From the NCBI GenBank assembly GCA_963765495.1, contig CAVXWP010000016.1:160001-224000 (forward strand): 64,000 nucleotides of DNA. The letters are read 5' to 3'. The notes under the pieces are model-generated. The model was not told where the DNA came from, ran no database searches, and saw nothing but the letters and a program-made list of their open reading frames with translations. A program made the position numbers and the translations under genes. Numbering within the stretch: position 1 is the stretch's first letter; the number at the start of each line of letters is the position of its first letter. The stretch is from Blastocatellia bacterium. GTDB lineage: Bacteria > Acidobacteriota > Blastocatellia > UBA7656. Of the stretch, positions 4,197-29,376 are shown piece after piece.

Positions 4197-6551
4197 ATGA
4201 AACTGAAGCTATTCATCGTTGCACTCTATGGACTGACTATGCTCGCGCTCGCGGCCCTGTCTACGAGCACATTCGCTTATTCGGGACCGGATGAAGCGAT
4301 TCAAAGCGAGGGTGAGCGAGTCGCCGTCAGATTCGACATTACAGGCAGACGCGGGCTGGTCATGTTTGACCACAAGCAACACGAGGCCCTGATAAACCCC
4401 GATCCGATCTTCCCTCACAAGACGCCGACCGGAGTCGCATGCATTGGGTGTCATCACACGGTCAAGGACATCACAGATCCAAAAGATTTTCAAAAATGCA
4501 CAAATTGTCACAAAGACCCCGGCAATCCCATAAACCCCGATGACAAGGAAGGCTTTGACCTGAACTCGATGCAGGCGTTTCACCGCCTCTGCATCAGTTG
4601 TCACAGGGCCTCGGCGGATGAGGATTTCAGAGCCGCAAGCGACAGATTCAAAGCCAAGAACGTGCGATTTGCCAATGTCGAGCGAACCATCAAATTTACA
4701 AAGTGCGGCGAGTGCCACGACCGCGACGCCACCTTTACTCCTGTAGCCGGAGAGGTGCTCGCTCAGCCTTCGCCCGACGATTCGCCCGATTTCGCACTGA
4801 GACTGAATCGCGCTCCGGCCCCGAGCGAAATCTTTAAGACGCCCTCAAATCCGCAGCTTGGATTCTCAGGGCCGTCAAGCATCGACAGACAGGAACAGAC
4901 CTCGGCCGATGCCGTGCAGGTTCCCGACCGCTGGCGCATAGGCTTTCCCGATGACCCGCGCTACAAACGCGGCGCGTGGTATAACCCCTATCGCCAGAAC
5001 ATCCTCAAAGGCGATTACCCGATCTTCAAGCAGCACAATTTCATGGTTCTGACGCTTGAAAGCGAGACCCTCGTCACCGCCAGGCGCATCCCTGTTCCAA
5101 GCAACGTCAGCGCGCAGAGACCCGATTCCGAAGAGTTCTTTGGCCGGGGCGGGCAAATCTTTACCCGGGAAAATTTCGTCGCCTCGATAGAGATTTTCCA
5201 CGGCGACACCTCCTATAAGCCTATTGATTGGAGATTCCGCTTCACGCCAAACTTCAACATCAATCACCTGAACACGCAGGAGAACTCTCTGGTCAACATC
5301 AACCCGGCTTTTGGAGCAAATCGGCTTGACGGCTATGTGGGATTTCAAGAGCTTTTCGGTGAAATGAGGCTCGGAGACACGACCAAACTACTTCCGTTCC
5401 TCAGAGGCCGGGGAAGCCAGAAAGGCGAAAGCCCGTACTTCGACACCACGTTTATCCGAGTGGGTATACAACAGTTCCAGAGCGATTTCCGGGGATTCAT
5501 CTTCAACGATTTCAACCTCGGAGCGCGACTCTTCGGACAGGCGGCAAATAACCACTACAACTTCAACGCGGCCTATTTTTACCTGCTTGAGAAAGACACA
5601 AACAGCGAATTGAACACCCGCGTAAACCTCGGCGAGTTCAGAGACCAGTCGCTGTTTATCGCCAACGTCTACAAGCAGGACACGATCTGGAAAGGCTACC
5701 AGACACAATTCAGCTTTCACTTCAACAACGACCGCCCGAGCAGGCACTTCGACGAAAACGATTTCCTTGTGCGCCCCGCCCTTATCGGAGACGCGGCCCC
5801 GCACGGAATCAAGTCTTACTACCTGGGATTTACGGGCGACGGCCACATAGGAAAGCTCAACATAGATCACGCCTTCTATCAGGTTCTGGGCCACGACACG
5901 CGCAATCCGATTGCCGGGCGCGAGGTTGACATAAACGCTCAGATGGCCGCAGCCGAGCTTTCTATTGATCGAGACTGGCTCAGGTTCAAAGGGTCGCTCT
6001 TCTTCGCTTCGGGCGATAAGAAACCCTTTGACGGCACGGCCCGTGGCTTTGATTCGATTGTGGATTTGCCGGAATTTGCGGGAGGCAAATTCAGCTTCTG
6101 GCAATTCAACCCCATCCCCTTCACAAACACGGCTGTACTTTTGACCCAGCCCGAAAGCCTGCTGCCGAACCTTCGCAGCAGCAAGACCGAAGGACAATCC
6201 AACTTTGTCAACCCCGGCATCTTCATCTACAACGTGGGAATCGAGGCGGAGATGACGCCAAAGCTCCGGGGCATCCTGAACCTGAATTACTCGCATTTTC
6301 ATCACACCGAAACGCTCGAACAACTGGAATTCCAACCGGGCATCCGCCGCGACATAGGGATTGATTACGGCGTTGGGGTACTGTATCGCCCGCTTTTGAA
6401 CGAGAACATCGTCATTGCAGGCGGGTTCTCGTCGCTGATCCCCGGCAAGGGGTTCGAAGACATCTATAGCTCTAACTGTAGCGGACAAAATTGCGGGTTC
6501 GCCACGAAGACCCTGTTTTCGACCTTTGTGAAGGTGAAAGTCATTTACTGA
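4197..6551 (+). CDS. Tetraheme cytochrome c3-like domain fused to an outer-membrane beta-barrel
   Basis: Signal peptide; FDHKQH plus CIGCHH, CTNCH, CISCH, CGECH. Then about 500 aa of amphipathic alternating beta-strands ending in aromatic C-terminal VKVKVIY. Confidence 0.8.
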
Positions 6552-6594
6552 TTTCGACAAGGCGTTGTGTAGTCATTCGCGTTGGGAGATAGAG

Positions 6595-9500
6595 ATGAAC
6601 GTACGTACCAGTAGCGGTCTCAAACTGTCGTTGATCCTGTTGGCAGTCTGCCTTTACACCTTTATCAGTTTCGCCGACACAACCCCCTCTGCGCGGCCTG
6701 CTTCTCCGGCAAAAGAGACCGGCAAGACGAAGGCAACCGATACGAAAGCGACTGAGGCGAAGGCAACTGAGGCGAAGGCAACTGAGGCGAAGGCCGCGGC
6801 GAAGGATTCGGCCAGTAATTCTGCTTCGGCGAAAAAGGATACCGGGAAGGAGTCAAAAGCCCCGGCCTCTGCCGCGCAAAACGCAGGTGGCGCCAAACTC
6901 TGGGGCATGACCAAAGAAGAGGCCGACCGCCGCAGCGCGGGCTGCAATGACTGCCACACCGGTATCGAAGACATGCACAACGGGGCGATAAACCTCGGCT
7001 GCATTGACTGCCACGGCGGCAACGCGGATGTCCGGGCGCAGGGCCTCTCGATGGGGTCAGCCCCCTACAACGAGGCGAAAAAACAGGCGCACGTTCAGCC
7101 GCGCCTCCCCGATCTCTGGAAGACCTCCGCCAATCCCGAACGGTCTTATACAGCCATACTCAGAGAGAGCCAGGAGTATGTTCAGTTCGTCAACCCCGGC
7201 GATCTGCGCGTTGCGCGCCGAAGCTGCGGGGTAGCCGAATGCCACCCCGGCGATGTGCACAACGTCAAGAAGAGCATGATGACTACGGGCAGCATGCTCT
7301 GGGGCGCGGCGCTCTACAACAACGGGTCGTTCCCGTTCAAGGATGCTCAATACGGCGAAAGCTATGACGAGGACGGCAAGCCTCAACGCCTGCAAACGGT
7401 CCCTTCTCCCACGCCCGAAGAGACTCACAAAAAAGGCATTCTCCCCTTTATAGACCCGATGCCCAGATGGGAAGTCTCTCAGATGGGAAACATACTGAGG
7501 ACATTCGAGCGCGGCGGGCGCAAGTCCGCAGAGATAGGCAATCCCCAGCCGGAAGAGCCTCCGGGAAAGCCCACGCAAAACCTTCTGAGCCTCAGAGGGT
7601 TGGGAACCCTGCTCGCCACAGACCCGACCTTTATCGGTCTGCAAAAGACTCGCCTGCTCGACCCGACGCTTAATTTCATGGGGACCAATGACCAGCCGGG
7701 TGACTATCGCTCAAGCGGCTGCACCTCCTGTCACGTCATCTATGCCAATGACCGCGACCCTTACCATTCGGGGCCGTTCGCAAAATACGGCCACACAGGG
7801 TTAAGCGCCAGCGCCGACCCGACCATCCCGAAAAACGAATCGGGGCACCCGATAAAGCACCAGTTTACGCGAGCCATTCCGAGCAGCCAGTGCGTGGTCT
7901 GTCACATGCACCCCGGCACGCTCGTGCTGATGACCTACTACGGCACGATGTGGTGGGATCTTGAGACGGACGGCGAGAAGATGTATCCCAAAGAGCACAA
8001 AGAACTGAGCGCGGAAGAGGAACGAACCATCCTCCAGCGGAACCCGGAAGCGTCGTCGCTCAGGGGTAAATGGGGCGATCCCGAGTTTCTTAGGAACCTC
8101 CGCGAAGAGGTCAATCCCGATCTCAAACACACGCAGTTTGCCGACTTCAACGGTCACGGATGGGTCTATCGAACCACATTCAAAATGGACCGTAAGGGAA
8201 ATTATCTGGATGCCAACGGCGATATCGTCAAGGATGTAACATCGGAAAAACTCAAGAAGGCCGTCGAAGACCCTTATGATGAAAACGCCGATCGCTCAGG
8301 GATTCCCGTTCATCTGAAAGACATTCACCTCGAACGCGGGATGCACTGCATAGACTGTCACTTCCGACGCGACAGCCACGGGAACGGAAATCTCTACAGC
8401 GGGCCTCGCAACGCCATAGAGATTTCATGCGAAGACTGTCACGGCACTATAGACAAACGCGCCGACCCGACATCTCTTGATGCGCGAACATCGGCAGCCG
8501 CGGGCGGCAACCGCATGCTCGAATACCGCAAGGTCTCTCCGCTCGGCGATAACCCGGCCTTAAAGAAAGACAGGTTTTTCAAGAAAGACGGCAAGCTTTT
8601 CCAGCGATCGGCGGTCGAAGCCGACAAGACGTGGGAGGTTAAACAGCTTGTTGACATAATCACGCCGGGCAACCCCGAATACAACGAGAAGGCGGCGCTT
8701 GCCAAGACCGTGCTAAAGGACGGAAAGACCTGGGGCACGGTGCCCGCAGATGATCGCAATCTCGCGCACGCAAACAGCAAGATGACATGTTTTGCGTGTC
8801 ACATGTCGTGGACGCCAAGCTGTTTCGGATGTCACCTGAAGCAGACCGCAAATCAACAGCGCGCGATGCTGCACAACGAAGGCGATGAGGAACTGCGAAA
8901 TTATGTGACCTATAATTTCCAGACCCTCCGCGACGATGTCTTCATGCTTGGGAAAGACGGCACGGTAACAGGCAAACGGTTTGCGCCCATCAGATCGGCA
9001 TGCGCCGTTCTGGTCAGTTCCAGAAACGCCCTTCGCGAATACCTCTACTGGCAGCAGCAGACCGTATCTCAGGAAGGCTACAGCGGGCAGGCGTTCAGTT
9101 CTCACTTCCCGCACACGGTCAGGACCACCGAGACAAAAGGATGCACCGATTGCCATCTGTCTAAGGAAAATGACAACAACGCATACATGGCCATGGTGTT
9201 GATGCAGGGGACGAATTTCTATAACTGGATAGGGCGATACGTCTATGTCGCCACAGGCGAAGGCGGTTATTCGGCCATCGTCGCCACCGAGCGCGAGGAA
9301 CCGCAGGCCGTCATCGGCAGCCATCTGCATAAACTGGCCTTCCCCGAGGAGTACAAGAAACACCAGGAAGACCACGAGGAGCTTCACGAATTTTACGAGC
9401 ATCCGGGCAACGATATAGGCAACTCGCTCAAGCTTTTCGGCAAGGACAAGACCGAAGTGCAAAGCCTTCAGCTTCGCGGCGAATACCTTTATGCCGCGAC

Positions 9501-10944
9501 CGGAGAGGGTGGCTTCCGCATCTATGACGTTGCAAATATCGACCAGAAGGGATTCTCTGAAAGAATGACCACGGCTCCGTTCTCGCCGATGGGACAGAAA
9601 TTCTATATAAAGTCGAAGTACGCGACCGCCATCGCATCGCCGTCAACACTTGCGGTTGACCCGACGGCGACCGTGGGCGAAGTCCTGAAAGAGAAGACGC
9701 GCCGCATCTACCGGCCCGAAAACGACGAAGGAAAGTATCGCGACGACGGGCAGTTGATACCCGCGCTTTACGGCTTCCTCTACGGCACGGACAGGTACGA
9801 GGGGCTTGTGGTCATAGGCAACCCGCTCACCGAAAAGAAAAAAGGACCGGGCGTGGCCACATTGCTCGACGGCGACCCGAACAACAACTTTATCAAGCGC
9901 GCTCTGGCCTTCAATCCTGACGGCCTGCTCAACGGGGCCAACAACATCGTCATCGCGGGTTTCCACGCCTACATAACCTGCGATAAGGGGCTGGTTATCA
10001 TAGACCTTCACGACCCGCTCAAGCCAAAAGTTGTGGGGCAGATCGGAGAGCCGTTTATAAAGAAACCGCGAGCCGTGCAGATACAATTTCGCTACGGTTT
10101 CGTCTGCGACGAGGAAGGCGTAAAGGTCATTGACGTGACCGATCCCGATCACGTTCGTCCGGTCGAAGGCGCGGTCGTGCGGCTCGAAGATGCCCGAAAC
10201 ATCTACCCCGTCAGGACCTATGCTTACGTAGCAGGCGGCAAACAGGGGCTTGTCATTCTCGACATCGAAAACCCGGAAAAGCCGAAACTCGATCAGGTCT
10301 ATAACGCCGACGGGCAGATCAACGATACAAACGATGTGAAGGTGGGCATGACAAACGTGAGCCTGTTTGCTTATCTGGCCGATGGTCACAACGGGTTGCA
10401 GGTAGTTCAACTGATCTCGCCCGAAGATACGCCCGGCCATTACGGGTTCAGCCCCCGCCCGACCCCGCATCTGATCGCGCATCATCACACGCACGAACCG
10501 GCCCTCGCCATAAGCGAAGGGATAGACCGCGACCGCGCCGTGGATGAAAGCGGCAATCAGCTTTCCGTGTTTGGCCGCAGAGGCGCTCGTCCGATGAACC
10601 TCGAAGAACAGCATCGAATGTATATGAAAGACGGGAAGCTCTTTTCCTTCCCCGAAATCAAAGACAGCAACATCAAAAACAACAAAGACATCCGAGACTA
10701 CTTCGGGCCGCCGCCGCTAAACGAGTCGGCCGGTGGCAGCGGGTCGAAACCTGAGGCCCCGAAGGGTACTCAAAAAGAAGAGAAAAAATCGGAAGCCGCT
10801 TCCGGTCACAGTCCGGGACAGGCGCGCCTGGTCGAGCCTGACCAGATCAGGCCAAACGATTCAGCGGAATTGTTCGGGCTTGCGGGTCTGTTTTTGCCGC
10901 TGGCAATAACTCTGTTCCAACAGCGTAGGCGCAACAAAAAGTGA
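6595..10944 (+). CDS. Large exported multiheme cytochrome c (9 CXXCH + 1 CX4CH) with C-terminal LVIVD-repeat beta-propeller and C-terminal membrane anchor
   Basis: CNDCH, CIDCH, CGVAECH, CTSCH, CVVCH, CIDCH, CEDCH, CFACH, CFGCH, CTDCH. Repeats such as [22 protein letters not shown] and [13 protein letters not shown]. Tail [24 protein letters not shown]. Confidence 0.88.
6727..6795 (+). repeat. 15-bp coding tandem repeat (KATEA pentapeptide linker)
   Basis: About four copies of (a)aggcaactgaggcga encoding [10 protein letters not shown]. Confidence 0.85.
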
Positions 10945-11035
10945 CTCGTGATTCGTGATTGACCAAACTTGCAAGATGCCTTTGACATGCAGGCTTCTTA
11001 AAAGTCACGAATCACGAATCACTCTTCACGCATCA
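10941..11035. repeat. Inverted heptamer-array element, family A copy 1
   Basis: (tcgtga.)n-core-(tcacgaa)n. Overlaps the TGA stop at 10942-10944. Confidence 0.8.
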
Positions 11036-11050
11036 GATCGAGGGATTGAT

Positions 11051-11608
11051 ATGAGATTGAAGCTGGCTGTTCTTACGATATACGCGCTAGGCGTGATTAC
11101 GCCCGCGGCTTTGATGGCCGGACCCGCTGCCTCCGAGGATCAGGGCAACAGGGACAGCTATCAGAGTAAGAACCCCATTATCATGCTCAACACCAAGGGC
11201 GTGCGCACGCGCGGCCCTGTGCGCTTTGACCACGACGAACACGATTCGCTCATCAATCCCGACCCGAATAATCCTCACCCGGCTAAAGAGGGCGCGGCCT
11301 GCATAGGATGTCATCACACGGAGGACGCGCGCGGCATCGTGCAGTTGTGGAAATGCACTTCGTGCCACAAGACCGAAGGCGGGGGCGACGGGAAATTCAT
11401 AAACACAAAGAACAAGGACTGCGATCAATCGGGCAATCCCAAGAATCGCGAATGCGACGAGGTCTATTTCGAGCGGGCCTTTCACGACAAATGCATAAGC
11501 TGTCATATAGCGTCGAATAAAGAGTTCACCCTGAAGCAACCCGCGCCCGTGACGTGCGGCGGCTGCCACGAGTCTTTAGGAGCGAGCGCGGCCATGAATT
11601 CTAAATAG
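11051..11608 (+). CDS. Periplasmic tetraheme cytochrome c3-like protein
   Basis: Signal peptide; FDHDEH, CIGCHH, CTSCH, CISCH, CGGCH. Paralogous to the N-terminal domain of 4197..6551. Confidence 0.88.
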   Translation: MRLKLAVLTIYALGVITPAALMAGPAASEDQGNRDSYQSKNPIIMLNTKGVRTRGPVRFDHDEHDSLINPDPNNPHPAKEGAACIGCHHTEDARGIVQLWKCTSCHKTEGGGDGKFINTKNKDCDQSGNPKNRECDEVYFERAFHDKCISCHIASNKEFTLKQPAPVTCGGCHESLGASAAMNSK

Positions 11609-11709
11609 CACGAATTCTAAATAGGAAGTTGGACCGGATTTGAGGTGTAATTAGGGGCTGTCCGAATTTTGCTATGACAGGTGGCAGTCATCTGGAGGAT
11701 TACCAGACC

Positions 11710-12693
11710 ATGCTGGGAACGAAAAGGATAGTACTCGCTTTAGGCTGTCTGTTGTTGATGGGGGCGTATTTCGGATTTACGCCGTCCGAGGCTAGTGAAA
11801 CCGACGCGCTCGTTTCCCAGCCCGTTCAGGGCGCGAGGCGAAACGCCAGCTTTCCACACGAAAAACAGAAGCACTCCGAGCTCGATTGCTCGAAATGTCA
11901 CCGGGTCACAAATCAGCCGCCCTTCGATGTCAAATCTCCCACGAGCGGTTCGGTTTATCCGGGGCACGCAAGCTGCGCGGGGTGTCACAACTTTGCCCAG
12001 ATGTTTTTCACGCAGCCGCAGTTTTGCGCCATCTGTCACAACGGAAGAGCCGTATCCCGTTCACAGCCCGCGCTCTTTGACCGCATCCCCAAGGCCGACC
12101 GCCCGAGCGATTTCGGATTGGATTTTTCACACGTCAATCACAAAAAGTCGCTTCCGCAAAACATACAGATAGAGCGATTTGATGTTAAGCCGATCTCTCA
12201 TTTCGGAGACATGTTCCAGCCGGGCGACGCTCCTAAATGCACCGGCTGTCACGAACAGACCCGCCCCCTGCGCGACAACCCGGATGATATGCGGACGGCC
12301 ACGGGGCACACGGCCTGCTTTGTCTGCCACGGCGCAATTCCTTCGAGCGGACGGTTGAAAAGCGTAAAGGAATTTCCTTACATGAACGATTGCCGCGAGT
12401 GTCACGACCTGCGCGGAGGGCGCTCGCCGCATCTGTTTGCAAATTACCATATAATGGATTTCAGGCACGAGGACCACGATTACGACATACGCCCGAGAAC
12501 CAAACAGCAGATCCGCGAGATAAAAGCCGAGGATCGTTTGTGTTCCGAGTGCCACAAGTCTGCGGCTACGGCTGAAAGCCTCAATGCCATAAAGCTGCCG
12601 GAAGAAAATTACTGCAACCAGTGCCATAACGGTAAGATCGGGCTGCCCGATCCTCTGGCTCAGGATGTTATGGATACGCTTAGAAGGCGTTAA
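11710..12693 (+). CDS. Octaheme cytochrome c built of c7/c3-like repeats
   Basis: Signal peptide; 8 CXXCH arranged 3+3+2, each group preceded by an FxH..H segment. ggagg RBS before ATG 11710. Confidence 0.88.
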   Translation: MLGTKRIVLALGCLLLMGAYFGFTPSEASETDALVSQPVQGARRNASFPHEKQKHSELDCSKCHRVTNQPPFDVKSPTSGSVYPGHASCAGCHNFAQMFFTQPQFCAICHNGRAVSRSQPALFDRIPKADRPSDFGLDFSHVNHKKSLPQNIQIERFDVKPISHFGDMFQPGDAPKCTGCHEQTRPLRDNPDDMRTATGHTACFVCHGAIPSSGRLKSVKEFPYMNDCRECHDLRGGRSPHLFANYHIMDFRHEDHDYDIRPRTKQQIREIKAEDRLCSECHKSAATAESLNAIKLPEENYCNQCHNGKIGLPDPLAQDVMDTLRRR

Positions 12694-12713
12694 ACCGATA
12701 GGGCGGTAATGAC

Positions 12714-13724
12714 ATGAGAAACGATACAGCGACAAGGCTCAAGCAAATAGTTCTGGCGATAACCGTGACACTTCTCATAGCGGGGGTCGCCTGCCGCAGC
12801 ACACAGCAGAATTTGAATAAACCGCCCGAAAACACAAATGGAAACTCAAACACCGCAGCGCCCGTCGACACAGGCATAATCACGGCCGAATCGCCCGTGG
12901 TCCGCACCTCGACTTTTGACCATTTCAGGGCCGAGCACCGGGTGGGGGCTGATGCGAAGATAAAAGACTGCGCCGTCTGCCATAAGAGAGACACCGCCGC
13001 GCCCTCAGACCCGCAGGTAAAACAGCCGAACCGGGATGGCTGGACGCCTTATCACGATTCTTGCGAGGTCTGTCATAACAAAGAGAATTTCCGCGAAACA
13101 TCGGCAACCGTACTGAAAGAAAAACCCCTCTGCGCGGGGTGCCACAAGGCGGAGGGCAACCAGATCGCCATATCTTCGGGCGGCGGGTTGAAAGGCGTCG
13201 TGATCGATTACCCGAAAGTGGAGACCGAATTCGGCATCAAAGGCGGCGCGAAAGGCTTCTCTCATAAGACTCACATGGACCTGCAAAAGATGGCCAACGA
13301 AGGCCAGGAAGTCAAATGCGAGACCTGTCACCAGTTCGGCAACAGAGGCATTCAGGCCTCCTTCCCGGAGCACCCGAACTGCTTTGGCTGTCACAGCCAT
13401 CAGGCCGGGCAGAAATTCGGCTCCTGCGACGTTTGTCACGTAAAGGCGCAGATGGCCGTAAGCTTCAGCCCCGGGACGGGGACGGCAGCCCGGCTGTATA
13501 ATTTCAGACACAGCAACTCTCATTTGAAGGCGGCAAACTGCGACCGATGTCATAAGACGAGGGAGATAGAAGCTCAGGCTGAAACCGATACGAAACCTCC
13601 TACCGATATAATGCAAATCAGCACGGCGCGAGGACAACGACACACTTCAGCCTGCTGGAGTTGTCACAGCCAGGCGCGTGAAACCGTTTGTACGAAATGC
13701 CATGTCGGGTCCCTGCCATTCTAA
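12714..13724 (+). CDS. Nonaheme cytochrome c lipoprotein (3 x triheme c7-like repeats)
   Basis: Lipobox IAGVA-C; 9 CXXCH in three FxH..H-CXXCH..H..CXXCH..CXXCH units. Confidence 0.88.
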   Translation: MRNDTATRLKQIVLAITVTLLIAGVACRSTQQNLNKPPENTNGNSNTAAPVDTGIITAESPVVRTSTFDHFRAEHRVGADAKIKDCAVCHKRDTAAPSDPQVKQPNRDGWTPYHDSCEVCHNKENFRETSATVLKEKPLCAGCHKAEGNQIAISSGGGLKGVVIDYPKVETEFGIKGGAKGFSHKTHMDLQKMANEGQEVKCETCHQFGNRGIQASFPEHPNCFGCHSHQAGQKFGSCDVCHVKAQMAVSFSPGTGTAARLYNFRHSNSHLKAANCDRCHKTREIEAQAETDTKPPTDIMQISTARGQRHTSACWSCHSQARETVCTKCHVGSLPF

Positions 13725-13885
13725 ATTCAACAGGTCTTTTACGGCGCATCCTCGGCTAAGGGACGGGCCAGGCCAAACAACATTGACTCAAGAATGCCCG
13801 TGGTGTATCGTCCCTACCAAACCTTCCTGGTTTGATCCGGGGGATCATCAGGCTTGATTTCTTTTCCGAACAGAGGTGGTATTTT

Positions 13886-16324
13886 ATGGCGCAAGAACGC
13901 AAAAGCCGGCGCGAGGTACTCGACGCAATCAAAACCATCCCTTCGATAGCCGAGCTTTTATCGGCTCACGAAGGCCATTACGAACACGAGCTTGACCTTG
14001 AAGTCACCGTTTACGGGCGCAATTATGGCGGTAAGAAGGTCGGCCCCTATGTCCGCCTGCTCAGCTACGACCCGGGAGAGGCTGTGATTAAGGAAGGCGA
14101 CTGGGGCGGGAATACATTTTACATTGTAGCCGGCGGCCACGTGGATGTTTTTATAAATGCCCCCGGTCAGGGCGAAGTCAAAGTGGCGGAATTGCCCTCC
14201 GGCACTCAATTCGGAGAGATGAGCGTGCTTGCCGGTGTGCCTCGTAACGCCACGGTTAGGGCGCCTGCCGCGGGCCCCGCACAGGTGCTTGAAGTTCAGC
14301 GCCCGGCCCTGCGCCTGCTTCGCAAACTCCCAAAGTTCAGCGAGAGCCTCGATAAGACATATCGCTCGCACGGCAGAAATGCAACGATCGAAGATCTGAA
14401 GCTTCTCTTCGACATACCCGGAGAGCTTGCCGAGGACATCAAAAACATGTCGCTCTTCAGGGTCTTCTCAAAAAACCACGTCCTCTTCCGCGAAAACGCC
14501 GCCATCGACCGCATCTACGTGATAAAAGAGGGATGGATTCGCCGCAGCAAAGAGACGGGCGAAGTCGAAACGGAAGACTTCCTCGGCAAGGGCTATTGTC
14601 TGGGCGTAGAGGGGTTGTCGCAAAGCGCATCCTGGCCATACACCGTCACATTGCTCGGACGAACCGAGGTGCTTGAAATTTCGCTTCTCAGGCTTCGCCA
14701 GAACCCGGAACTCTTAAATGCCATTGCTAAAGGGATAGGCAGATTCGCGCCGCCGCCTTTTATGGCAAAGGTGAGCGAATTTAAGCCCGAAGTCCGCGAT
14801 AAGATTTTGGCCGCGCAGGAGAGCCTTATAGACACGGGCCTCGTCGATGGAAACAACCTGCTCGTCATGGACATGGACCTCTGCGTCAGATGCGGCAACT
14901 GCTCGCTTGCCTGTCACAAGATTCACGGCCAGTCGCGGCTGCTCAGAAGAGGCGTCCACGTGACCCGGCTCGACCGGCCGCGCCCGAGCGCCGTTCAAAG
15001 CATACTCTCTCCATCTGTCTGCATGCACTGCAAAGACCCCGAATGCCTGACCGGATGCCCTACGGGGTCGATAGGCAGGTTCGGCGCGGGGCAGGTAGAC
15101 ATCGACGCGAAGACCTGCATAGGCTGCGGCGATTGCGCCACCCAGTGCCCTTACAACGCCATCTCGCTGATTCCACGCAAACCGCCCGAAGCGGTAAAGA
15201 GCAACGGCGGATTTGCGGGTAAACTGCGCGATCTTTTAAGGCTTTCGCCCGACCCGCTCCCGCCCCCCGTAGAGACTACGGACAATCTGGTAGCCGTCAA
15301 ATGCAATCTCTGCAATAACACTCCGATAAATCCTCCGGGCAGCAAACGTCAGGCTTATAGCTGTGAAGAGAACTGCCCGACAGGGGCGCTTGCCCGCGTC
15401 AACCCGAGAGAGTATTTCAGCGAAATAGGCAATATCGAAGGGCTGATGTTGATGGATCAGACCCACGCTTACGGGCGCAATATTCATCAGTCCGATCCGC
15501 CAAAACGACTCACTCACATCGCAGGCATTCTGCTGACCGTGCTTCTGACTGCCGGAACCATATTGGGTATAGAACGCTACGGGCTTGGCGAACGTCTCTT
15601 CAGTTTCCTCAACATGCGCTGGATCACGGGGCTTGTCGGCCTCTTAGGCATCGCGGTCGTGATGACCTATCCCGTGCGCCGTCAGATGTACCGTCGCCGC
15701 GCGGGAGCCTTGCGTTACTGGATGCTCATACATTCTTATGTGGGAGTCATCGCGGGGCTTATGATACTGCTGCACGGCGGCACAAGTTCGGGCGGGTTGC
15801 TCACGACGGCGCTCATGATAAGCTGGGACCTCGTGATATTCACGGGTCTTTTTGGCATCTTCGCTTATCTGATCGGGCCTCGGATACTGACAAAGATCGA
15901 AGGCTCACCGCTTCTGATCGACGATCTGAAGACACGGCGCGAAGAGTTGCAAAAAGAGATAGCAACGATAGCAAGCTCGCCAAACGGGCAGCTTCACAAT
16001 CTGGTCAGAAACAAAGTCGTGCCGCACTTTGTCAACTTCGGATATCTGCTCAGACAGTATCTGAAGCGCGAGAACATTGATGAGATGCTTGAATCAGCCA
16101 AAGCCGAATTCAGTTCCGACGCCGCGACGCTTGCCGACGAAAAAGACCGGCGCAAGCTGCTGCGCGCAGTCGAAGCGGCGGCAACCCTGCGCAGAGTCGA
16201 CGCGCTCATCTACATCCATCGCGGTCTGAAGCTCTGGCTCATTCCACACGTAGCCTCAACTTCGCTAATGCTCGCGCTCATGACAGTTCACATAATACAG
16301 GTCATCTATTACGCATCGCGCTAG
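13886..16324 (+). CDS. Tandem cNMP-binding domains + DmsB/NrfC-like 4x[4Fe-4S] domain + multi-TM His-containing membrane domain
   Basis: FGEMSVLAGVPRNATV (phosphate-binding cassette). CVRCGNCSLAC, CMHCKDPECLTGCP, CIGCGDCATQCP, CNLC..CEENCP. TM helices with IHSYVG, LLHGG, PHVAS, TVHII. Confidence 0.85.
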   Translation: MAQERKSRREVLDAIKTIPSIAELLSAHEGHYEHELDLEVTVYGRNYGGKKVGPYVRLLSYDPGEAVIKEGDWGGNTFYIVAGGHVDVFINAPGQGEVKVAELPSGTQFGEMSVLAGVPRNATVRAPAAGPAQVLEVQRPALRLLRKLPKFSESLDKTYRSHGRNATIEDLKLLFDIPGELAEDIKNMSLFRVFSKNHVLFRENAAIDRIYVIKEGWIRRSKETGEVETEDFLGKGYCLGVEGLSQSASWPYTVTLLGRTEVLEISLLRLRQNPELLNAIAKGIGRFAPPPFMAKVSEFKPEVRDKILAAQESLIDTGLVDGNNLLVMDMDLCVRCGNCSLACHKIHGQSRLLRRGVHVTRLDRPRPSAVQSILSPSVCMHCKDPECLTGCPTGSIGRFGAGQVDIDAKTCIGCGDCATQCPYNAISLIPRKPPEAVKSNGGFAGKLRDLLRLSPDPLPPPVETTDNLVAVKCNLCNNTPINPPGSKRQAYSCEENCPTGALARVNPREYFSEIGNIEGLMLMDQTHAYGRNIHQSDPPKRLTHIAGILLTVLLTAGTILGIERYGLGERLFSFLNMRWITGLVGLLGIAVVMTYPVRRQMYRRRAGALRYWMLIHSYVGVIAGLMILLHGGTSSGGLLTTALMISWDLVIFTGLFGIFAYLIGPRILTKIEGSPLLIDDLKTRREELQKEIATIASSPNGQLHNLVRNKVVPHFVNFGYLLRQYLKRENIDEMLESAKAEFSSDAATLADEKDRRKLLRAVEAAATLRRVDALIYIHRGLKLWLIPHVASTSLMLALMTVHIIQVIYYASR

Positions 16325-16374: not shown

Positions 16375-19300
16375 ATGGCCAAGAACATATTCATCATCAA
16401 AAGGACGGATAAGGATAGCGGCGTTGACGATGTCGTTATCGAAAGCGAAGGCTTAACCATAGGACGGCTCGTCGGTAACGACCTCGTCCTAAACCACAGG
16501 GCCGTGTCCAGAACCCACGCCGGGATAAAAGAGATCAACGGCGAATTCTGGATATTCAATCTCTCAACCTCTAACGGGACGGTGCTAAACGGCCAACTGG
16601 CTGACAAGACGCCGCTCGCCGACGGGGACGTGCTTCAGATAGGCCCTTATATGCTCGTGATTGAATACGGCAAGAACGCGCTCTCGATAATCGTTCAAAG
16701 AGAGATCGAGGTCAATCCGCTCGAGGCATATGGAGCGGCGCAGTCGGCAGGCGCGGACGAAACCGGAAAGACCATGATGATCCAGATACCGGGTCTTGCG
16801 GGCAAAATTCCGGGCGGCACAAAAAGCATCAGAGGCACAGGGCTTCTCGGCAATGTGCTTCCCTCGATGGATCAGGCGGCGCTCGATGTCTTCTGGGAGA
16901 AGAGAAAAAGAGAGGCAGGCAAGATCGCCGAAGTCACGCCGCTTCATCCGAAGGGGGGCGAACGACTCGGGAGAGCCAGAAACAACTGGCGTCCTACGGT
17001 TGATCTGCGGAGGCTGTGGCGCAAGTCTTACTTCTATCTTGGCGCGGCCGTCGTCGTGTTGCTTTCGATTATCGCGATAATCATCTATGAGAGCGCATAT
17101 TCGCCCGGCTCGCTGGCCGACCCGCACGTGCGCGCGATGGATCAGAGCGCGCTCTTTACGCGAAATATCGCCAGCCGCGAAAACGCCAATTCGTGCTCCA
17201 CGTGCCACGGCGTCACAACAGGTATGCTCGACAACTGCATAACCTGTCATACGACTACGACCACGGGCGCGAGCGGCGCGACGAAGGCCGGGTTTTTGCC
17301 CCGCACCCTGATCGCAGGGCACAATAATCAGAACCTCGTATGCACCGACTGCCACATCGAGCATCAGGGGAGAGATGTTACAGCGGGTCTTGTGAGCTAC
17401 CGCCTCTGCTACAACTGTCACAACGGCGTTTACACGATCAAGAACGCGGGCAAGATCGGGCCTGCCGGTTCTGTGCTCCCCATTCCGCACGGCGGCAAGA
17501 CCGGATACACGGAACTGAGCACCGAGACAAAAGGCGGAAAATACTGGCCGGGGCTTTCCGCCGCGAGATGGGAAAAATCTATCGCCCGGTGGAGGGCGAA
17601 AGACCCCAACATCATCGCCGACGCGAAGAGTCTGGAAAACAGCCCCTCAAATCAGCAGTTTCACAAACTGCACCTCGGCGGCATAGGAATAGAAGGCAAG
17701 CAGAACAACCAGATATGCGCCATATGCCACTTCGATCAAAGCGGCAAAAATCTCGACACACAGACCAATTACGGTTTGCACGAAGCGCCGCGCCTGTCCT
17801 GCGCCAAGTGCCATACGGTCTCATACACGGTCGCGGGGGCAGCAAGTCAGGTCCCGGCAAGTTGCGAGACCTGTCATCAACAGCACGGCGCTGACGAAGG
17901 CATCCTCAACACGGCAAAGATCGTAGCCGACCCCGGCAAAGAACAGGAGTTTCTGGCTTCGCTCAACAAACCCGCGGCGGGACTCGAAAGTGGATTCCTG
18001 CCCTCGGCCGGGGCCATTGGAAGCGCCGATGTGATAAGGCAGAACAGAGATGTGGTCAGCCTTTCAAGCGCCGCTTCCAGTTTCGGCGCGCTTCCCTGGT
18101 ACGGGTGGGTGGCGGTCATCGGCATCATCCCCATCGCGGGTCTCGTCTTTATGTTCACCGACACGGCCCGCCGCAAATCTTATTTGAAGACGACTAAAAT
18201 AGAGGTCAAACCCGAGGATGAGGCGGCACTTGCGCTGACGGGTCTGCTCGACCTCGACAAACTGAAAGAGCAGGGACCGGCCTATCCTCACCCGGTCATA
18301 AACCAAATGACGTGCATAGGCTGTCACGCCTGCGTTGATGCCTGCCCTCACGATGTACTGGCAATCGTCAACGGAAAGTCTACGCCCATCGCGCTCGATC
18401 AGTGTATGGAAGACACCGCCTGTCAGGTCGAGTGCCCTACAAGTCCAAAATCCTGCATAGTAGTAAACACCAAGAAAGTGATTCCGCCGCGCAAGGTCCC
18501 GGCTCGTGACGGGCGGTTGGAGACCAACGTGCCGGGCATATATATGACGGGAGACGTTTCGGGTACGCCGCTTATCAAGAACGCCATAAACGAAGGGCGG
18601 AGGGTGATCGATTCCGTCAAGGAAGACCTTGAAAAGAACGGGCGCGCTCCGGGGGCGGATTATGATGTGGCAATCGTAGGATGCGGTCCGGCGGGATTGT
18701 CTGCGACGGTCCTTGCCAAAATAGAGGGGCTGAGTTATATCGCGGTGGAACAGGATCGTCTGGCCGGAATGATTCAGGAAGTCTATCAGGCAGGCAAGTT
18801 TGTCTTTTACACACCCGCCGATAAAGAAGTGGTCGGCGGCGTCCCGCTCCTCCCAGACCCCGACAAGCCCGAAGGAAATCTGAAAGAGAACATGCTCAAG
18901 GGCTGGTTCGACGCGATGATGCAAAACGGCGTGGTTGTAAATGAAGAGGAAGGATGCCGGGCGGTCAAGAGCGAAAACGGGTACTTCGTTCTTTCGACCG
19001 AAAAGGGCAAGTCGAAACAGAAGGTGGAGTACAAGGCTCGCAAGGTGATTCTCTCCATCGGCAATCGCGGAGCACCGATGAAACTCGGCGTTCCGGGCGA
19101 AGACCTAAAGATAACCGTCACGCCTCCGCCACAGATCGCCAATCACTGCCCGAAATGCGGGATGGCCCGCAAAGGCACCCAGCTTTTCTGCGTTCAGTGC
19201 GGGCAGCAACTCCCTTCAAAGACCCTGCCGCCTTTCGAGGACGACAGAGTGCAATACAAGCTCTCTGACCCGAAAGACTATGTCAACCGCAAGTGCATAG

Positions 19301-19674
19301 TCGTGGGCGCGGGCAATTCGGCCATAGAGGTAGCCGTAGGTCTTACAGGGTTTGAGCGCGACGGAGACAAGATCAATTTCACAAGCGACAACGAAGTCAC
19401 TTTGATCGTCCGCTCGGATTTCAAAGGAGACCTCGCTTTAGGAAACAAGATGAACGTCTATGATTGCATAGACTCGGGCCGCATGAAGGCATATTTCGGA
19501 TGCGGGATCAAAGAGGTGCTGCCCGGCGAGGTAGTCATAATGAACGCTCGCACAAAAGAAGAGAAGGCCCGCATCCCGAACGACTATATCTTCGCCCTGA
19601 TCGGTGCCGAAAAACCCATAAAATTCCTCGAAAGCATGGGCGTAAAGATCGGCGCGGAGGCAAAAAAGGGATGA
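16375..19674 (+). CDS. FHA + TM + heptaheme cytochrome c + TM + ferredoxin + permuted FAD/NAD(P)H thioredoxin-reductase-like oxidoreductase with zinc-ribbon insert
   Basis: IGR..VSRTHA..STSNGT (FHA). 7 CXXCH between two TM helices. CIGCHACVDACP/CMEDTACQVECP. GDVSGTPLIKNA precedes YDVAIVGCGPAG; VVGAGNSA; CPKC..CVQC. Confidence 0.85.
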   Translation: MAKNIFIIKRTDKDSGVDDVVIESEGLTIGRLVGNDLVLNHRAVSRTHAGIKEINGEFWIFNLSTSNGTVLNGQLADKTPLADGDVLQIGPYMLVIEYGKNALSIIVQREIEVNPLEAYGAAQSAGADETGKTMMIQIPGLAGKIPGGTKSIRGTGLLGNVLPSMDQAALDVFWEKRKREAGKIAEVTPLHPKGGERLGRARNNWRPTVDLRRLWRKSYFYLGAAVVVLLSIIAIIIYESAYSPGSLADPHVRAMDQSALFTRNIASRENANSCSTCHGVTTGMLDNCITCHTTTTTGASGATKAGFLPRTLIAGHNNQNLVCTDCHIEHQGRDVTAGLVSYRLCYNCHNGVYTIKNAGKIGPAGSVLPIPHGGKTGYTELSTETKGGKYWPGLSAARWEKSIARWRAKDPNIIADAKSLENSPSNQQFHKLHLGGIGIEGKQNNQICAICHFDQSGKNLDTQTNYGLHEAPRLSCAKCHTVSYTVAGAASQVPASCETCHQQHGADEGILNTAKIVADPGKEQEFLASLNKPAAGLESGFLPSAGAIGSADVIRQNRDVVSLSSAASSFGALPWYGWVAVIGIIPIAGLVFMFTDTARRKSYLKTTKIEVKPEDEAALALTGLLDLDKLKEQGPAYPHPVINQMTCIGCHACVDACPHDVLAIVNGKSTPIALDQCMEDTACQVECPTSPKSCIVVNTKKVIPPRKVPARDGRLETNVPGIYMTGDVSGTPLIKNAINEGRRVIDSVKEDLEKNGRAPGADYDVAIVGCGPAGLSATVLAKIEGLSYIAVEQDRLAGMIQEVYQAGKFVFYTPADKEVVGGVPLLPDPDKPEGNLKENMLKGWFDAMMQNGVVVNEEEGCRAVKSENGYFVLSTEKGKSKQKVEYKARKVILSIGNRGAPMKLGVPGEDLKITVTPPPQIANHCPKCGMARKGTQLFCVQCGQQLPSKTLPPFEDDRVQYKLSDPKDYVNRKCIVVGAGNSAIEVAVGLTGFERDGDKINFTSDNEVTLIVRSDFKGDLALGNKMNVYDCIDSGRMKAYFGCGIKEVLPGEVVIMNARTKEEKARIPNDYIFALIGAEKPIKFLESMGVKIGAEAKKG

Positions 19675-19871: not shown

Positions 19872-20642
19872 TTGAAAGTCAGACTTCTGCCGAGCAGCGC
19901 GGGGCGACATTCCCAGGAGCAGTCGCTAACCAGTTTCCTCATAAACGATCTGGTTTCGATTGACGGCGGCAGCATTGGATTTGCCCTGACGCCACCTGAA
20001 ATGGGCAAGGTCCGAGACATCGTGATAACGCATACGCACAGCGATCATCACGCATCTTTGCCTATTTTCATAGCCGAAGCATTCACAATGCTCGACGGAC
20101 CCGTTACGATTTACGGCCTGCCGGAAGTGATCTCGGCGTTGAGGGAGTTTATATTCAACGACAAAATATGGCCGAACTTCGAAAAGATTCCGCTTATGAA
20201 CGGCAAATCTTCTACGATAGAGTTTCGCGTCTTAGAGCCGAGAGAGACGATCGAGATTGCGGGGCTGCGCGTGACGCCAATACCCGTAAATCACCTTGTT
20301 CCGACTATCGGATTGCTGGTCGAGGACGACGGGGCCGCCGTGATCTTCACCTCCGATACTTACGTGACGGACGAGATATGGCAGCGCGGCAGAGAGAGCG
20401 AAGAGCTAAAAGCCGTCTTTGTTGATATTTCATTTCCGAACGAGCTTGGCAAACTTGCTGCCGACTCCAAGCACCTGACCCCTGAGTTGCTTGCCGGAGA
20501 GCTGAAAAAACTGAACCGGGATGCCGAAGTCTTTGCGGTCCATATCAAGCCTACCAACAGGGATCAGGTAATTCACCAGCTTGGCCTGCTCGACAATCCG
20601 CTTGTTTCAGTGGCCGAAATCGGGCGGGTTTATGAGTGGTAA
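19872..20642 (+). CDS. 3',5'-cyclic-nucleotide phosphodiesterase (class II / metallo-beta-lactamase fold)
   Basis: THTHSDHH metal motif, FNDKIWPNF, PVNHLVP, FTSDT, SKHLTP, VHIKP. TTG start after ggagg. Confidence 0.85.
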   Translation: MKVRLLPSSAGRHSQEQSLTSFLINDLVSIDGGSIGFALTPPEMGKVRDIVITHTHSDHHASLPIFIAEAFTMLDGPVTIYGLPEVISALREFIFNDKIWPNFEKIPLMNGKSSTIEFRVLEPRETIEIAGLRVTPIPVNHLVPTIGLLVEDDGAAVIFTSDTYVTDEIWQRGRESEELKAVFVDISFPNELGKLAADSKHLTPELLAGELKKLNRDAEVFAVHIKPTNRDQVIHQLGLLDNPLVSVAEIGRVYEW

Positions 20643-20693
20643 CTGACGGGTGGTAATTGCCCCAGACCGGTCGCCGCAGAATTTGAAGATGTT

Positions 20694-22319
20694 ATGTCTC
20701 TAAAACTATTAATAAGAAACACCGAAACAGGACAGGTAACCGAGAACGTATTGTCTGCCCCCGAAGTGCGGATAGGCCGGTCAGCCGAATATAACGACAT
20801 AGTGCTTGACGACTCTCAGGTCTCGCGCCGACACGCGATGCTACAGCGACTGGGCAGTTCATACATGCTTGTGGACCTAAACAGCGCCAACGGCACCTTC
20901 GTTGACGGTGAGCGGATCAAAGACCGCATCCTCAACGACGGCAATTCGTTTTCAATCAGCAAGTACACGCTCACATACAAGAGCGAAGGAGCGGTTGCCG
21001 TCAAATTCGACAACCAGCGAATCGGCAACACCGTACTGCTGCGCAACCCGGAACAGGTCGCGGCAAGTATAGCGCAACTGGATAAGTCTGTTATCTCTGA
21101 AGCCGCGGTTGATTCCAAGGACTTGCTCGAAGACATAGAAGCGCTCAGGAAAAAAGCGGAAACGCTGTCGCGCCTCTACGAATTGAATCAGATGCTCGGG
21201 TCGGTCTTTTCGCTCGAAGACATATTCAAGAAAGTAAGCGAGATGTTGTTCCGTCTGACGCCGGCCGACCGTTTTCTGGTTCTGTTGAAAGACACGGGCA
21301 CGGGCAAGCTCTCTCCGGTAGCCACGGAATTCCGCATACAGGCGGGCCGGTTGATAGCCGGTGACATATCGGTCTCTCAGACTGTGATGGACCGCGTCTT
21401 AAACGAGCGAATGTCGCTGCTCTCCTTCGATGCGCAGGGCGATGAGAGGTTGAAATCGTCTCAGTCCATCATCATGCAGAATATCCATTCGGTTATGTGC
21501 GCTCCTTTGCTTGGCAAAAACGGCGTGCTGGGTGTCGTCTATGTCGATTGCCTGCAAATCATTCAGACCTTTAAGGAAGACGACCTTGAATTATTGAATG
21601 CGCTCGCGGCTGAGACCGCCATAGCCGTCGACAACGCCATAACACACGAGCAACTGGTCAGAGAAGCCCTGGCTCGCGCTACCTATGGCCGCTTCATGCC
21701 CAAGCACGTGGTTGATGCAATACTGGCCAACCCCGATCAGATAAGCATGGGAGGGTCAAACGCCCTCGTTACCATGCTCTTTTCCGACGTTCGCGGATTC
21801 ACAAGCATGTCTGAGAATCTGCCGCCTGAGACCGTAGTCCAGATGCTTAATGAGTATTTTGGCGATATGGCTCCAATTGTATTCGAGTATCAGGGTTTGC
21901 TCGACAAGTATATCGGAGACGGTTTGATGGCGCTCTTCGGCGTGCCTTATCAAAACGAAAAATCTGCCACAAACGCCGTGGCCGCCGCCGTAACCATGCA
22001 ACGCCAGATGGAAAAGGTAAACAAAGAACTAACGAATAGAGGGCTTGCTGAAATCGCCATCGGGATAGGCATAAACACTGGAACGGTGACGGTCGGCTAT
22101 ATAGGTTCGGAAGAGCGGACCGATTATACCGCGATTGGCGACGCGGTCAATCTGGCTGCGCGATTGGAAAAAGAAGCGGGCCGAGGTCAGATAATAATCA
22201 GTTATTCCACGCTCGAAGCAATCGGAGACGGCTTTCCCGTAAAGCCAAAAGGCGAAGTGCTTGTAAAGGGGAAGCGAGAAGCGGTTAAGATTTATGAGGT
22301 TCTCTGGCAGGAGGCCTGA
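20694..22319 (+). CDS. FHA-GAF-class III adenylate cyclase
   Basis: IGR..VSRRHA..SANGT; SVMCAPL..GVVYVD (GAF). FSDVRGFT, DKYIGDG and YTAIGDAVNLAARLE (Lys/Thr indicate ATP specificity). Confidence 0.92.
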   Translation: MSLKLLIRNTETGQVTENVLSAPEVRIGRSAEYNDIVLDDSQVSRRHAMLQRLGSSYMLVDLNSANGTFVDGERIKDRILNDGNSFSISKYTLTYKSEGAVAVKFDNQRIGNTVLLRNPEQVAASIAQLDKSVISEAAVDSKDLLEDIEALRKKAETLSRLYELNQMLGSVFSLEDIFKKVSEMLFRLTPADRFLVLLKDTGTGKLSPVATEFRIQAGRLIAGDISVSQTVMDRVLNERMSLLSFDAQGDERLKSSQSIIMQNIHSVMCAPLLGKNGVLGVVYVDCLQIIQTFKEDDLELLNALAAETAIAVDNAITHEQLVREALARATYGRFMPKHVVDAILANPDQISMGGSNALVTMLFSDVRGFTSMSENLPPETVVQMLNEYFGDMAPIVFEYQGLLDKYIGDGLMALFGVPYQNEKSATNAVAAAVTMQRQMEKVNKELTNRGLAEIAIGIGINTGTVTVGYIGSEERTDYTAIGDAVNLAARLEKEAGRGQIIISYSTLEAIGDGFPVKPKGEVLVKGKREAVKIYEVLWQEA

Positions 22320-27809: not shown

Positions 27810-27823
27810 AACTCATCCCTTCG

Positions 27824-29362: not shown

Positions 29363-29376
29363 TCTCTCACTCCCTC

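Follow-up and report, generated by a model that had tools for sequence, protein, structure and literature searches.

We analysed a 64,000-nucleotide stretch of DNA from a Blastocatellia bacterium (assembly GCA_963765495.1, contig CAVXWP010000016.1, positions 160,001 to 224,000; hereafter the window, with positions counted from its first letter). The gene at 16375..19674 (+), an ATG-started open reading frame (ORF) with full-length homologues, encodes a 1099-amino-acid (aa) fusion protein in which an FHA domain, a transmembrane (TM) helix, a heptaheme c domain, a second TM helix, a ferredoxin and a flavoprotein follow one another. The flavoprotein module is a circular permutant of the fold shared by YpdA and thioredoxin reductase (TrxR). 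On balance, and reading from sequence, we think it somewhat probable that the fusion protein is the electron-input/output subunit of an inner-membrane NAD(P)H:multiheme-cytochrome c oxidoreductase, a quinone-independent outlet gated by cAMP and phosphothreonine (pThr).

From the computed domain content, positive-inside topology, permutation, conservation, split and fused forms and partner linkage, we infer cofactor occupancy, NADPH preference, direction of flow, acceptor and regulation, and the proposed route would run as follows. The cytoplasmic permuted flavoprotein would oxidise NAD(P)H, probably NADPH, and pass electrons from its flavin adenine dinucleotide (FAD) to the fusion protein's own two iron-sulfur (FeS) clusters, from there to four [4Fe-4S] clusters of a partner protein encoded upstream, and on to two bis-His b hemes that the partner would hold stacked across the bilayer. 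On the outside, the b hemes would reduce the fusion protein's own heptaheme c domain, which would feed ~35 further c hemes encoded upstream and, finally, an extracellular or periplasmic acceptor. Because the fusion protein has only two TM helices, it could not move electrons across the membrane alone and would hand them over to the partner. Such a route would bypass quinones and would work like NADPH oxidase (NOX). Since negative charge would move outward and depolarise the membrane, energy would be dissipated and not conserved, which would account for heavy gating; the candidate gates are the FHA domain of the fusion protein, two cyclic-nucleotide (cNMP)-binding domains of the partner, and a neighbouring phosphodiesterase and FHA-GAF cyclase. 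If this reading is true, a direct link from NAD(P)H to periplasmic multiheme proteins would be a different solution from the quinol-fed entry points, and it would bear on the redox balance of the abundant soil Acidobacteria and on their dealings with metals and humic substances.

Architecture and topology of the fusion protein

We parsed the fusion protein with Pfam and NCBIfam profiles and located TM helices, CxxC and CxxCH motifs and charged residues by script. The order of modules given in the original prediction, which had been made from the letters of the window without database searches, was borne out by this parse. The N-terminal FHA domain (aa 20-98, 16432..16668, +) matches PF00498 over aa 28-90 with 54 bits against a cut-off of 20.7. 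Residues G30 and R31, S45, R46 and H48, and N67, G68 and T69 are invariant among 21 full-length sequences, and the intact pattern G-R ... S-x-x-H ... N-G, which we take to be the pThr-binding signature of FHA domains, is by itself what suggests regulation of the fusion protein by pThr.

Two hydrophobic helices flank the heme domain. TM1 (aa 217-245, 17023..17109, +; hydropathy 2.68) has five K/R in the 15 residues before it and one in the 15 after it, while TM2 (aa 570-598, 18082..18168, +; hydropathy 2.16) has two on its heme side and six after it, including R599 and R600, which are nearly invariant in the alignment of 21. By the positive-inside rule, TM1 is predicted to run from inside to outside and TM2 from outside to inside, which places the N-terminus inside, the hemes outside and the C-terminus inside. 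The K/R counts thus agree with the original claim that hemes and flavin lie on opposite sides of the membrane, and speak against their lying on the same side.

The segment between the two TM helices contains a predicted periplasmic heptaheme c domain (aa 270-506, 17182..17892, +), with CxxCH motifs at aa 274, 288, 323, 345, 448, 476 and 497. All seven motifs are invariant among the 21 full-length homologues, as are seven other histidines (H251, H316, H330, H372, H430, H433 and H504), which are candidate distal heme ligands. The domain scores above the cut-offs of Cytochrome_C7 (PF14522, 30.7 against 24.8) and Cytochrom_c3_2 (PF14537, 25.3 against 25), and its comparison with PDB sequences gave only two matches, with E values of 0.34 and 0.77, and so no solved sequence relative. 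An eighth CxxCH, at aa 647, belongs to the ferredoxin motif CIGCHACVDACP.

The ferredoxin (aa 638-700, 18286..18474, +) is predicted to be of the two-cluster type and matches Fer4_7, the 4Fe-4S dicluster profile, with 28.5 bits against a cut-off of 27. Its first motif, CIGCHACVDACP, is the canonical CxxCxxCxxxCP. The second, CMEDTACQVECP, reads CxxDxxCxxxCP, in line with the irregular motif announced in the original prediction. Among 43 family members, the non-cysteine position is occupied by D in 25, by H in 17 and by C in one; among the 21 full-length homologues, the FeS cysteines, D680 and C694 are invariant. The second site may hold a 3Fe cluster, or a 4Fe cluster with Asp or His as a ligand.

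The flavoprotein module is a circular permutant

The flavoprotein follows the ferredoxin in an order that differs from that of its relatives. A segment comprising a strand, the motif TNVPGIYMTGD and a long helix (aa 707-760, 18493..18654, +), which resembles the FAD 'GD' segment, stands ahead of the GxGxxG motif; specifically, ETNVPGIYMTGD (aa 716-727) precedes GCGPAG (aa 769-774). The FAD Rossmann part (aa 763-915, 18661..19119, +) includes GCGPAG and E792, and Pyr_redox_3 and Pyr_redox_2 match over aa 763-1093 with 89.5 and 66.9 bits, respectively. After an inserted ribbon comes the remainder of the flavoprotein (19282..19653, +), identified from its alignment to YpdA 158-273 and from counts of conserved residues, and the chain ends in ...FLESMGVKIGAEAKKG without a second GD motif. 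Because the 'GD' segment stands ahead of the GxGxxG motif, the fold is circularly permuted.

Several sequence comparisons bear on this order. In a phmmer search of aa 630-1099 against the PDB, YpdA/Bdr came first (7a76, E 4e-13); aa 765-913 align to YpdA 6-148 and aa 968-1096 to YpdA 158-273, while aa 713-730 align to YpdA 281-298 in a weak match that is not significant by itself. The segment aa 707-750 gives a short, weak match to positions 432-476 of the 485 of TIGR01317 (glutamate synthase small subunit; E 4.2e-5). We also built a profile from the 63-aa stretch preceding GxGxxG in 16 family members. It matched 108 PDB sequences at E ≤ 1, and in the best 60 of these 108 the matched stretch lies past residue 280. 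The best match is to trypanothione reductase (313-351, E 1.5e-5), and others are to dihydrolipoyl dehydrogenase (~305-345), glutathione reductase (320-350), GltD (446-482 of 524) and TrxR (298-317 of 343). We take this late stretch to be the FAD 'GD' segment, which in these enzymes comes after the NAD(P) domain.

The structural model of aa 630-1099 predicted by AlphaFold2 from a 43-sequence alignment has a mean predicted local distance difference test score (pLDDT) of 90. In model numbering, the displaced segment is predicted as a strand at 93-95 and a long helix at 105-126, with block pLDDT means of 85-96. Foldseek places YpdA first (E 6.5e-21), followed by TrxR-like ferredoxin-NADP+ reductases (FNRs) and TrxRs. 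VIA-align aligns the model from residues 129-134 to 464-470 onto residues 1-15 to 251-291 of the TrxR, YpdA, FNR or AhpF flavoprotein domain in 50 of the 50 rows listed (AhpF and NTRC entries number this domain from ~100-212 to 370-466). For YpdA, the match has a Z of 20.2 and a root-mean-square deviation (rmsd) of 5.1 over 264 aligned positions, and for TrxR-type FNRs or TrxRs, Z is ~17. The model ends where the solved chains still have the GD motif and the final helix unmatched. The profile matches, the confident model and the missing C-terminus together suggest that the displaced segment fills the canonical GD position. Three computations agree that the flavoprotein module is a circular permutant of the YpdA/TrxR-like fold, as the original prediction had proposed from the position of the GD segment before the FAD motif.

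A cysteine ribbon is inserted in the flavoprotein (aa 924-945, 19144..19209, +), with CPKC at 925 and CVQC at 939, ahead of GAGNSA at 978. Its match to Zn_Ribbon_1 is weak (E 0.0082, under the cut-off of that profile), and its four cysteines and two glycines (C925, C928, G929, C939, C942 and G943) are invariant among the 21 homologues; the bound metal may be Zn, or Fe in an Fe(Cys)4 site. Besides the two ribbon pairs, a script scan found no CxxC in the flavoprotein part, and hence no redox CxxC of the TrxR type. The original prediction was right on both counts, the inserted ribbon and the lack of a TrxR-type CxxC.

The best sequence and fold matches of the module are YpdA/Bdr (7a76, 7a7b) and the TrxR-type FNRs (3lzw, 2zbw and 3ab1, with Z of 17.2, 18.3 and 17.0, respectively). 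With these enzymes it shares two Rossmann domains, an Arg of the NADPH type and the lack of an active-site CxxC. It differs from them in being permuted, in being fused to a ferredoxin and a membrane anchor, and in carrying the Cys4 ribbon. TrxR-type FNRs have a C-terminal extension that stacks on FAD; since the chain ends early here, such an extension cannot sit in the same place. Membership of two named families was considered and rejected. The YpdA/Bdr model TIGR04018 gives 121.5 bits in two stretches against a cut-off of 339.9, and its canonical order is broken in that GD comes ahead of GxGxxG and the chain ends at YpdA ~270; the low-Mr thioredoxin reductase model TIGR01292 gives 43.3 bits against 343.45, and the redox CxxC is absent.

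Conservation, cofactor preference and breadth of the family

Among the 21 full-length homologues, the invariant residues of the flavoprotein include T717, N718, G721, Y723, G726 and D727 in the displaced segment, G769, G771, P772 and G774 in the FAD motif, E792, G978 to S982, and R1013 and S1014. C770, at the position of Cys14 of YpdA, is not conserved. With no redox CxxC and an unconserved C770, the flavoprotein looks like an NAD(P)H:FeS reductase of the FNR kind. At position 1013, 42 of 43 sequences have R, and this residue lines up with the Arg of YpdA, which depends on NADPH (10.1101/2020.12.02.408641). GAGNSA, R1013 and the likeness to NADPH-dependent YpdA indicate that the donor is probably NADPH and not NADH.

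The ferredoxin and the permuted flavoprotein form a large unnamed family found in several phyla. A word-indexed search scored 7999 candidates, and 467 of these proteins matched at E ≤ 1e-3. Of the 467, the best 120 are 902-1142 aa long and 47-68% identical to the query, and those among the 120 with a labelled source come from metagenome-assembled genomes (MAGs) of Blastocatellia or Acidobacteriota. Existing annotations read only 'thioredoxin reductase', 'NAD(P)-binding domain-containing protein' or 'CXXCH cytochrome family protein'. A HMMER search with aa 630-1099 against 1.84 billion representatives gave 1979 matches at E ≤ 1e-3, 954 at E ≤ 1e-10 and 323 at E ≤ 1e-30, and the layouts below are described from the best 150 of the 1979 representative clusters. 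The common core consists of a TM anchor, a Fer4 domain, a segment of ~65 aa and Pyr_redox_3 extending to the C-terminus. Minimal members of ~440 aa, with a TM helix at 1-27, have no signalling domain. Other members have 4-11 CxxCH between two TM helices, one, three or five FHA domains (P0185, with three, is from Kofleriaceae), TPR repeats, or a C-terminal multi-TM domain in a chain of ~750 aa. The Cys4 ribbon is limited to close relatives and missing from distant ones, and GD becomes GE in distant members (D in 24 and E in 19 of 43 sequences). Among the ESM Atlas clusters, Acidobacteriota, Gemmatimonadota, Pseudomonadota and Myxococcota are the phyla seen most often. Within its own phylum the close family has a patchy distribution: of the 401 genomes sampled, 23 have a match at E ≤ 1e-40, and these fall in 19 of 228 genera.

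The kinship with YpdA raises the question of direction. Electrons might flow inward: donors in the periplasm or outside the cell would feed the hemes, and the flavoprotein would use the electrons to reduce NAD(P)+ or, like YpdA, a low-molecular-weight disulfide. Of the solved relatives, the closest is indeed the bacillithiol disulfide reductase YpdA, which is itself described as lacking a redox Cys near the flavin (10.1101/2020.12.02.408641). We nevertheless regard inward flow as very unlikely. By standard potentials, entry of electrons into a negative-inside cell and up to ~-320 mV would be doubly uphill, with no coupling module to drive it. Furthermore, every one of the best 150 representatives has the module attached to a ferredoxin and a membrane anchor, a tether that a soluble disulfide reductase could do without, and the score against the YpdA model is far under its cut-off.

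Split and fused loci

To place the fusion among its relatives, we scanned species-representative genomes, which gave 601 pattern matches and 168 stretches encoding a relative, of which 79 loci were kept. Fused genes occur in 31 of the 79 loci; they encode proteins of ~970-1110 aa, each with seven CxxCH and two TM helices. Homologues split into separate genes, a check that the original prediction had called for, account for 40 of the 79. In these, the ferredoxin-flavoprotein is an ORF of its own, 516-724 aa long and with no CxxCH before the ferredoxin domain, that usually starts with two TM helices (none is predicted in locus L071). The remaining loci comprise six with a missing 5' end and two that are broken or partial. 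Because the fusion recurs in 31 loci from independent assemblies, we rejected an assembly artefact as its cause, and the fused gene of the original prediction stands.

A separate FHA-TM-seven-heme gene, matching aa ~1-510 of the fusion protein with 25-46% identity, is present in 36 of the 40 split loci, and in all 36 it lies upstream of the flavoprotein gene. In locus L022, for example, the order is the partner (816 aa), an FHA-TM-heptaheme protein (501 aa) that stops just past its seventh heme, a 335-aa ORF, and a 2TM-ferredoxin-flavoprotein (561 aa, with the ribbon). Comparison of the two forms indicates that, in the fused form, the exported end of the heme protein takes the place of the first helix of the TM hairpin, in agreement with the topology predicted above, with hemes outside and flavin inside. 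The 335-aa ORF lies at L022 11495-12502 (+), between the FHA-heptaheme and flavoprotein genes.

The upstream gene encodes a proposed partner subunit

The gene at 13832..16324 (+) stops 50 nt before the fusion gene and encodes an 830-aa protein, the proposed partner subunit, with two cNMP-binding domains (92.8 bits), four predicted [4Fe-4S] sites and a C-terminal domain of five hydrophobic helices. Among 25 homologues, 16 of 16 cysteines are invariant, as are H562, H634, H648, H796, H806 and H820. H634 and H648 are 14 residues apart in one helix and H806 and H820 are 14 apart in another, a pattern that we take to be that of two bis-His hemes stacked across the membrane. The listed TTG start (window 13832-13886) is probably too early, since the L022 homologue begins at the residue aligned with an in-frame ATG 18 codons downstream (MAQERKS...).

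Loci were testable for linkage if the start of the ORF was complete and 2.7 kb or more of sequence preceded it; of 63 such loci, 53 encode a homologue of the partner no more than 3.5 kb upstream. A TM pattern of flavoprotein plus C-terminal TM domain is seen in 8 of the best 150 representatives. Two relatives with this layout were compared with the partner by BLASTP: the C-terminal TM domain of P0223 (748 aa) aligns to partner aa 558-821 with 23% identity (E 2e-9), covering both His helices, and that of P0200 (746 aa) aligns to partner aa 580-708 (E 4e-10). By these alignments, gene fusion ties the flavoprotein module to the membrane domain of the partner. The original claim that the flavin and FeS side would need the neighbouring His-containing TM protein to reach the hemes gains support from this adjacency, the four invariant His, the TM-domain fusions, and the presence of only two TM helices in the fusion protein itself.

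Weaker similarities relate the partner TM domain to heme b proteins. The nearest Atlas clusters contain proteins of ~280-300 aa that were auto-named 'Ferric reductase like transmembrane component' (score 0.97). DUF4405 (PF14358) scores 20.8 bits on the fused TM domain of P0200 and 19.3 bits on that of P0223 (E 5.7e-4 and 1.6e-3), under its cut-off of 26.7. DUF4405 is reported to bind heme b, and it has been proposed to carry electrons across the membrane in the manner of PepSY-like and MsrQ proteins (PMC11334425). Like the DUF4405, PepSY-like (FoxB) and MsrQ-like diheme b proteins of that account, the partner has a small helical membrane domain with four His at its centre, and it would share their proposed role in transmembrane electron transfer; it differs in that the systems covered there go with flavinylated proteins and not with c hemes (PMC11334425).

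The FeS region of the partner resembles ArrB, DsrO, NrfC and DmsB (E 1e-13 to 1e-16) with scores that are all far under the family cut-offs, so that by sequence it is similar to these families and not a member of them. This likeness bears on whether the same complex is wired to the quinone pool, with the diheme TM domain of the partner serving as a quinone/quinol site as in NarI, CbcL or ImcH-type entry; menaquinol would then feed the periplasmic hemes, and the flavoprotein-FeS arm would be an NAD(P)H:quinone reductase. ArrB, DsrO, NrfC and DmsB are four-cluster subunits of quinone-linked complexes, and the established inner-membrane entries to extracellular electron transfer (EET) are quinol oxidases, both of which count for such wiring. 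We consider it unlikely all the same. In Pfam and NCBIfam scans, the partner TM domain matched no NrfD, NarI or cytochrome b family, and its nearest Atlas neighbours have ferric-reductase-like names. In addition, because the FeS domain lies downstream of the cNMP domains and the protein has no signal peptide, it is predicted to be cytoplasmic, unlike the periplasmic NrfC or DsrO.

A possible counterpart of NADPH oxidase

The quinone-independent outlet that we favour resembles NOX and Fre-MsrQ systems, in which electrons pass from cytoplasmic NAD(P)H to flavin, two stacked bis-His b hemes and an outside acceptor, and the partner has the two helices, each with two His ~14 residues apart, that are seen in NOX and ferric reductases. 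NOX is regulated by phosphorylation or second messengers, which recalls the regulation proposed here. The differences are that the dehydrogenase here has a permuted TrxR/YpdA fold and not the plant-type FNR fold, that six FeS clusters would be interposed, that a built-in heptaheme c domain would be the acceptor instead of O2, and that two genes are involved. Pfam scans gave no match to Ferric_reduct, FAD_binding_8 or NAD_binding_6.

The Tmc and Hmc complexes of sulfate reducers share the three-layer layout of periplasmic multiheme c, membrane cytochrome b and cytoplasmic FeS protein, and the HmcA and HmcB profiles give weak matches. Those complexes lack a flavoprotein or NAD(P)H site and have other membrane and cytoplasmic subunits, and the electron flow proposed for them is inward. 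A literature search, conducted outside subscription journals and supplements, returned no description of this architecture or of a permuted TrxR-like flavoprotein, and the accessible part of a preprint on EET in peat (10.64898/2026.05.27.727921) contains no occurrence of 'FHA', 'thioredoxin reductase', 'inner membrane' or 'NADH'.

The genes downstream offer a possible source of NADPH. A complete oxidative pentose-phosphate cluster (window 25502-40320, -) adjoins the cytochrome/flavoprotein operon and comprises glk, opcA, zwf, two gnd, pgl, ROK, a HAD hydrolase, tal-pgi (a 971-aa transaldolase-PGI fusion) and tkt. Of the 16 fused loci with 7 kb or more of downstream sequence, 9 have zwf, gnd or opcA within 10 kb on that side, against 1 of 25 other loci; that one (L007) is incomplete at its 5' end, and its downstream genes are those of the fused type. 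In L011, the fusion gene and the phosphodiesterase gene are separated by gnd-zwf-opcA, encoded on the same strand. The linkage hints at NADPH as the donor.

Taken further, these features would make the pair a bacterial equivalent of NADPH oxidase assembled from unrelated components, a quinone-independent, cAMP/pThr-switched valve that drains NADPH from the adjacent pentose-phosphate genes onto ~40 hemes leading outward; we put this forward tentatively, as a possibility that we would not yet bet on. Were it true, aerobic soil Acidobacteria and the phyla with the minimal module would have a new way to reduce extracellular substrates or shed reducing power, and the two-dinucleotide-binding-domain fold would have, in this flavoprotein, its first natural circular permutant. 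For work on how protein folds evolve, the permutation is also a clean case provided by nature, and the dense FHA, cNMP, cyclase and phosphodiesterase regulation suggests a controllable electron gate that may interest bioelectrochemical engineering.

Several observations weigh against an oxidoreductase of this composition. In 10 of the 63 testable loci there is no partner within 3.5 kb. The genome of the window itself has a second fused paralogue (G000:C1:861810-864956; locus L084, 11811-14957) of 1048 aa, with 46% identity and eight CxxCH including the one in the ferredoxin; no cNMP-FeS-TM partner lies within ~10 kb of it, and only one partner gene was found genome-wide. The partner TM domain has no significant match in Pfam, NCBIfam or the PDB (PepSY_TM at E 1.7; nothing in the PDB under E 0.26), and a DUF4405 search of the same genome matches two other genes and not the partner. 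The AlphaFold model of the partner is poor, with a pLDDT of 59 overall and ~30 in the FeS part, and VIA-align of that model against 48,161 chains gave only coiled-coil or helical-hairpin matches (Z ≤ 8.5), from which no fold was assigned. Finally, the pentose-phosphate linkage is confined to one subclade and may equally well reflect inherited gene order.

We had also considered whether adjacency of partner and fusion gene is obligatory. The orphan paralogue in the same genome led us to reject this.

Regulatory genes and the wider neighbourhood

Downstream of the fusion gene, at 19872..22319 (+), Pfam identifies a class-II cAMP phosphodiesterase-like protein and an FHA-GAF-adenylate/guanylate cyclase. 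Both genes are present in 14 of the 25 fused loci that have at least 2.7 kb of downstream sequence. These signalling parts would fit the gates of the favoured oxidoreductase, and they also invite a reading of the complex as a redox sensor, in which the redox state outside would be sensed by periplasmic hemes and relayed to the FeS/flavin and FHA modules in the cytoplasm, which would feed cAMP signalling. Density of signalling parts is what recommends it: the FHA domain, two cNMP-binding domains, the phosphodiesterase, the FHA-GAF cyclase and two MscS-cNMP channels stand close together, genes for a PP2C phosphatase and a zinc-ribbon-FHA protein lie 25 kb away, and some relatives have three or five FHA domains. 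We judge a sensor quite unlikely, since FAD, six FeS clusters, two b hemes and seven c hemes, beside 34 CxxCH encoded upstream, would far exceed what a sensor needs, and the minimal ~440-aa family members do without any signalling domain.

Those 34 CxxCH are the total of five upstream genes (4152..13724, +) for secreted or anchored multiheme proteins with 4, 9, 4, 8 and 9 CxxCH, which are syntenic in related fused loci. One of them, a 1459-aa protein (window 6565-10944, +), has nine CxxCH, one Cx3-4CH motif, LVIVD repeats and a C-terminal hydrophobic segment at aa 1433-1452. The 799-aa protein that precedes it has four CxxCH followed by ~600 aa without a Pfam match at E ≤ 1. The left edge of the cytochrome cluster (window 810-3606) holds a truncated-globin-type gene (Bac_globin, +) and a 702-aa HbpS-like gene of the heme-degrading-like kind (-).

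Pfam scans of a hand-picked subset of window ORFs of at least 150-200 aa gave no Pkinase-family match; overlapping ORFs, smaller ORFs and six ORFs of 200 aa or more near 54.7-63.9 kb lie outside that subset. At window 43876-46399 (-), ~25 kb from the FHA-bearing fusion gene, a PP2C-type phosphatase gene overlaps one whose product has two zinc ribbons and, at its C-terminus, an FHA domain, both being components of Ser/Thr phosphorylation signalling. Two tandem MscS-like channels, each with a C-terminal cyclic-nucleotide-binding domain, are encoded at 22417-24045 (-) and 24076-25509 (-); the pair sits between the cyclase gene and the pentose-phosphate cluster, and it is kept in ~10 related loci.

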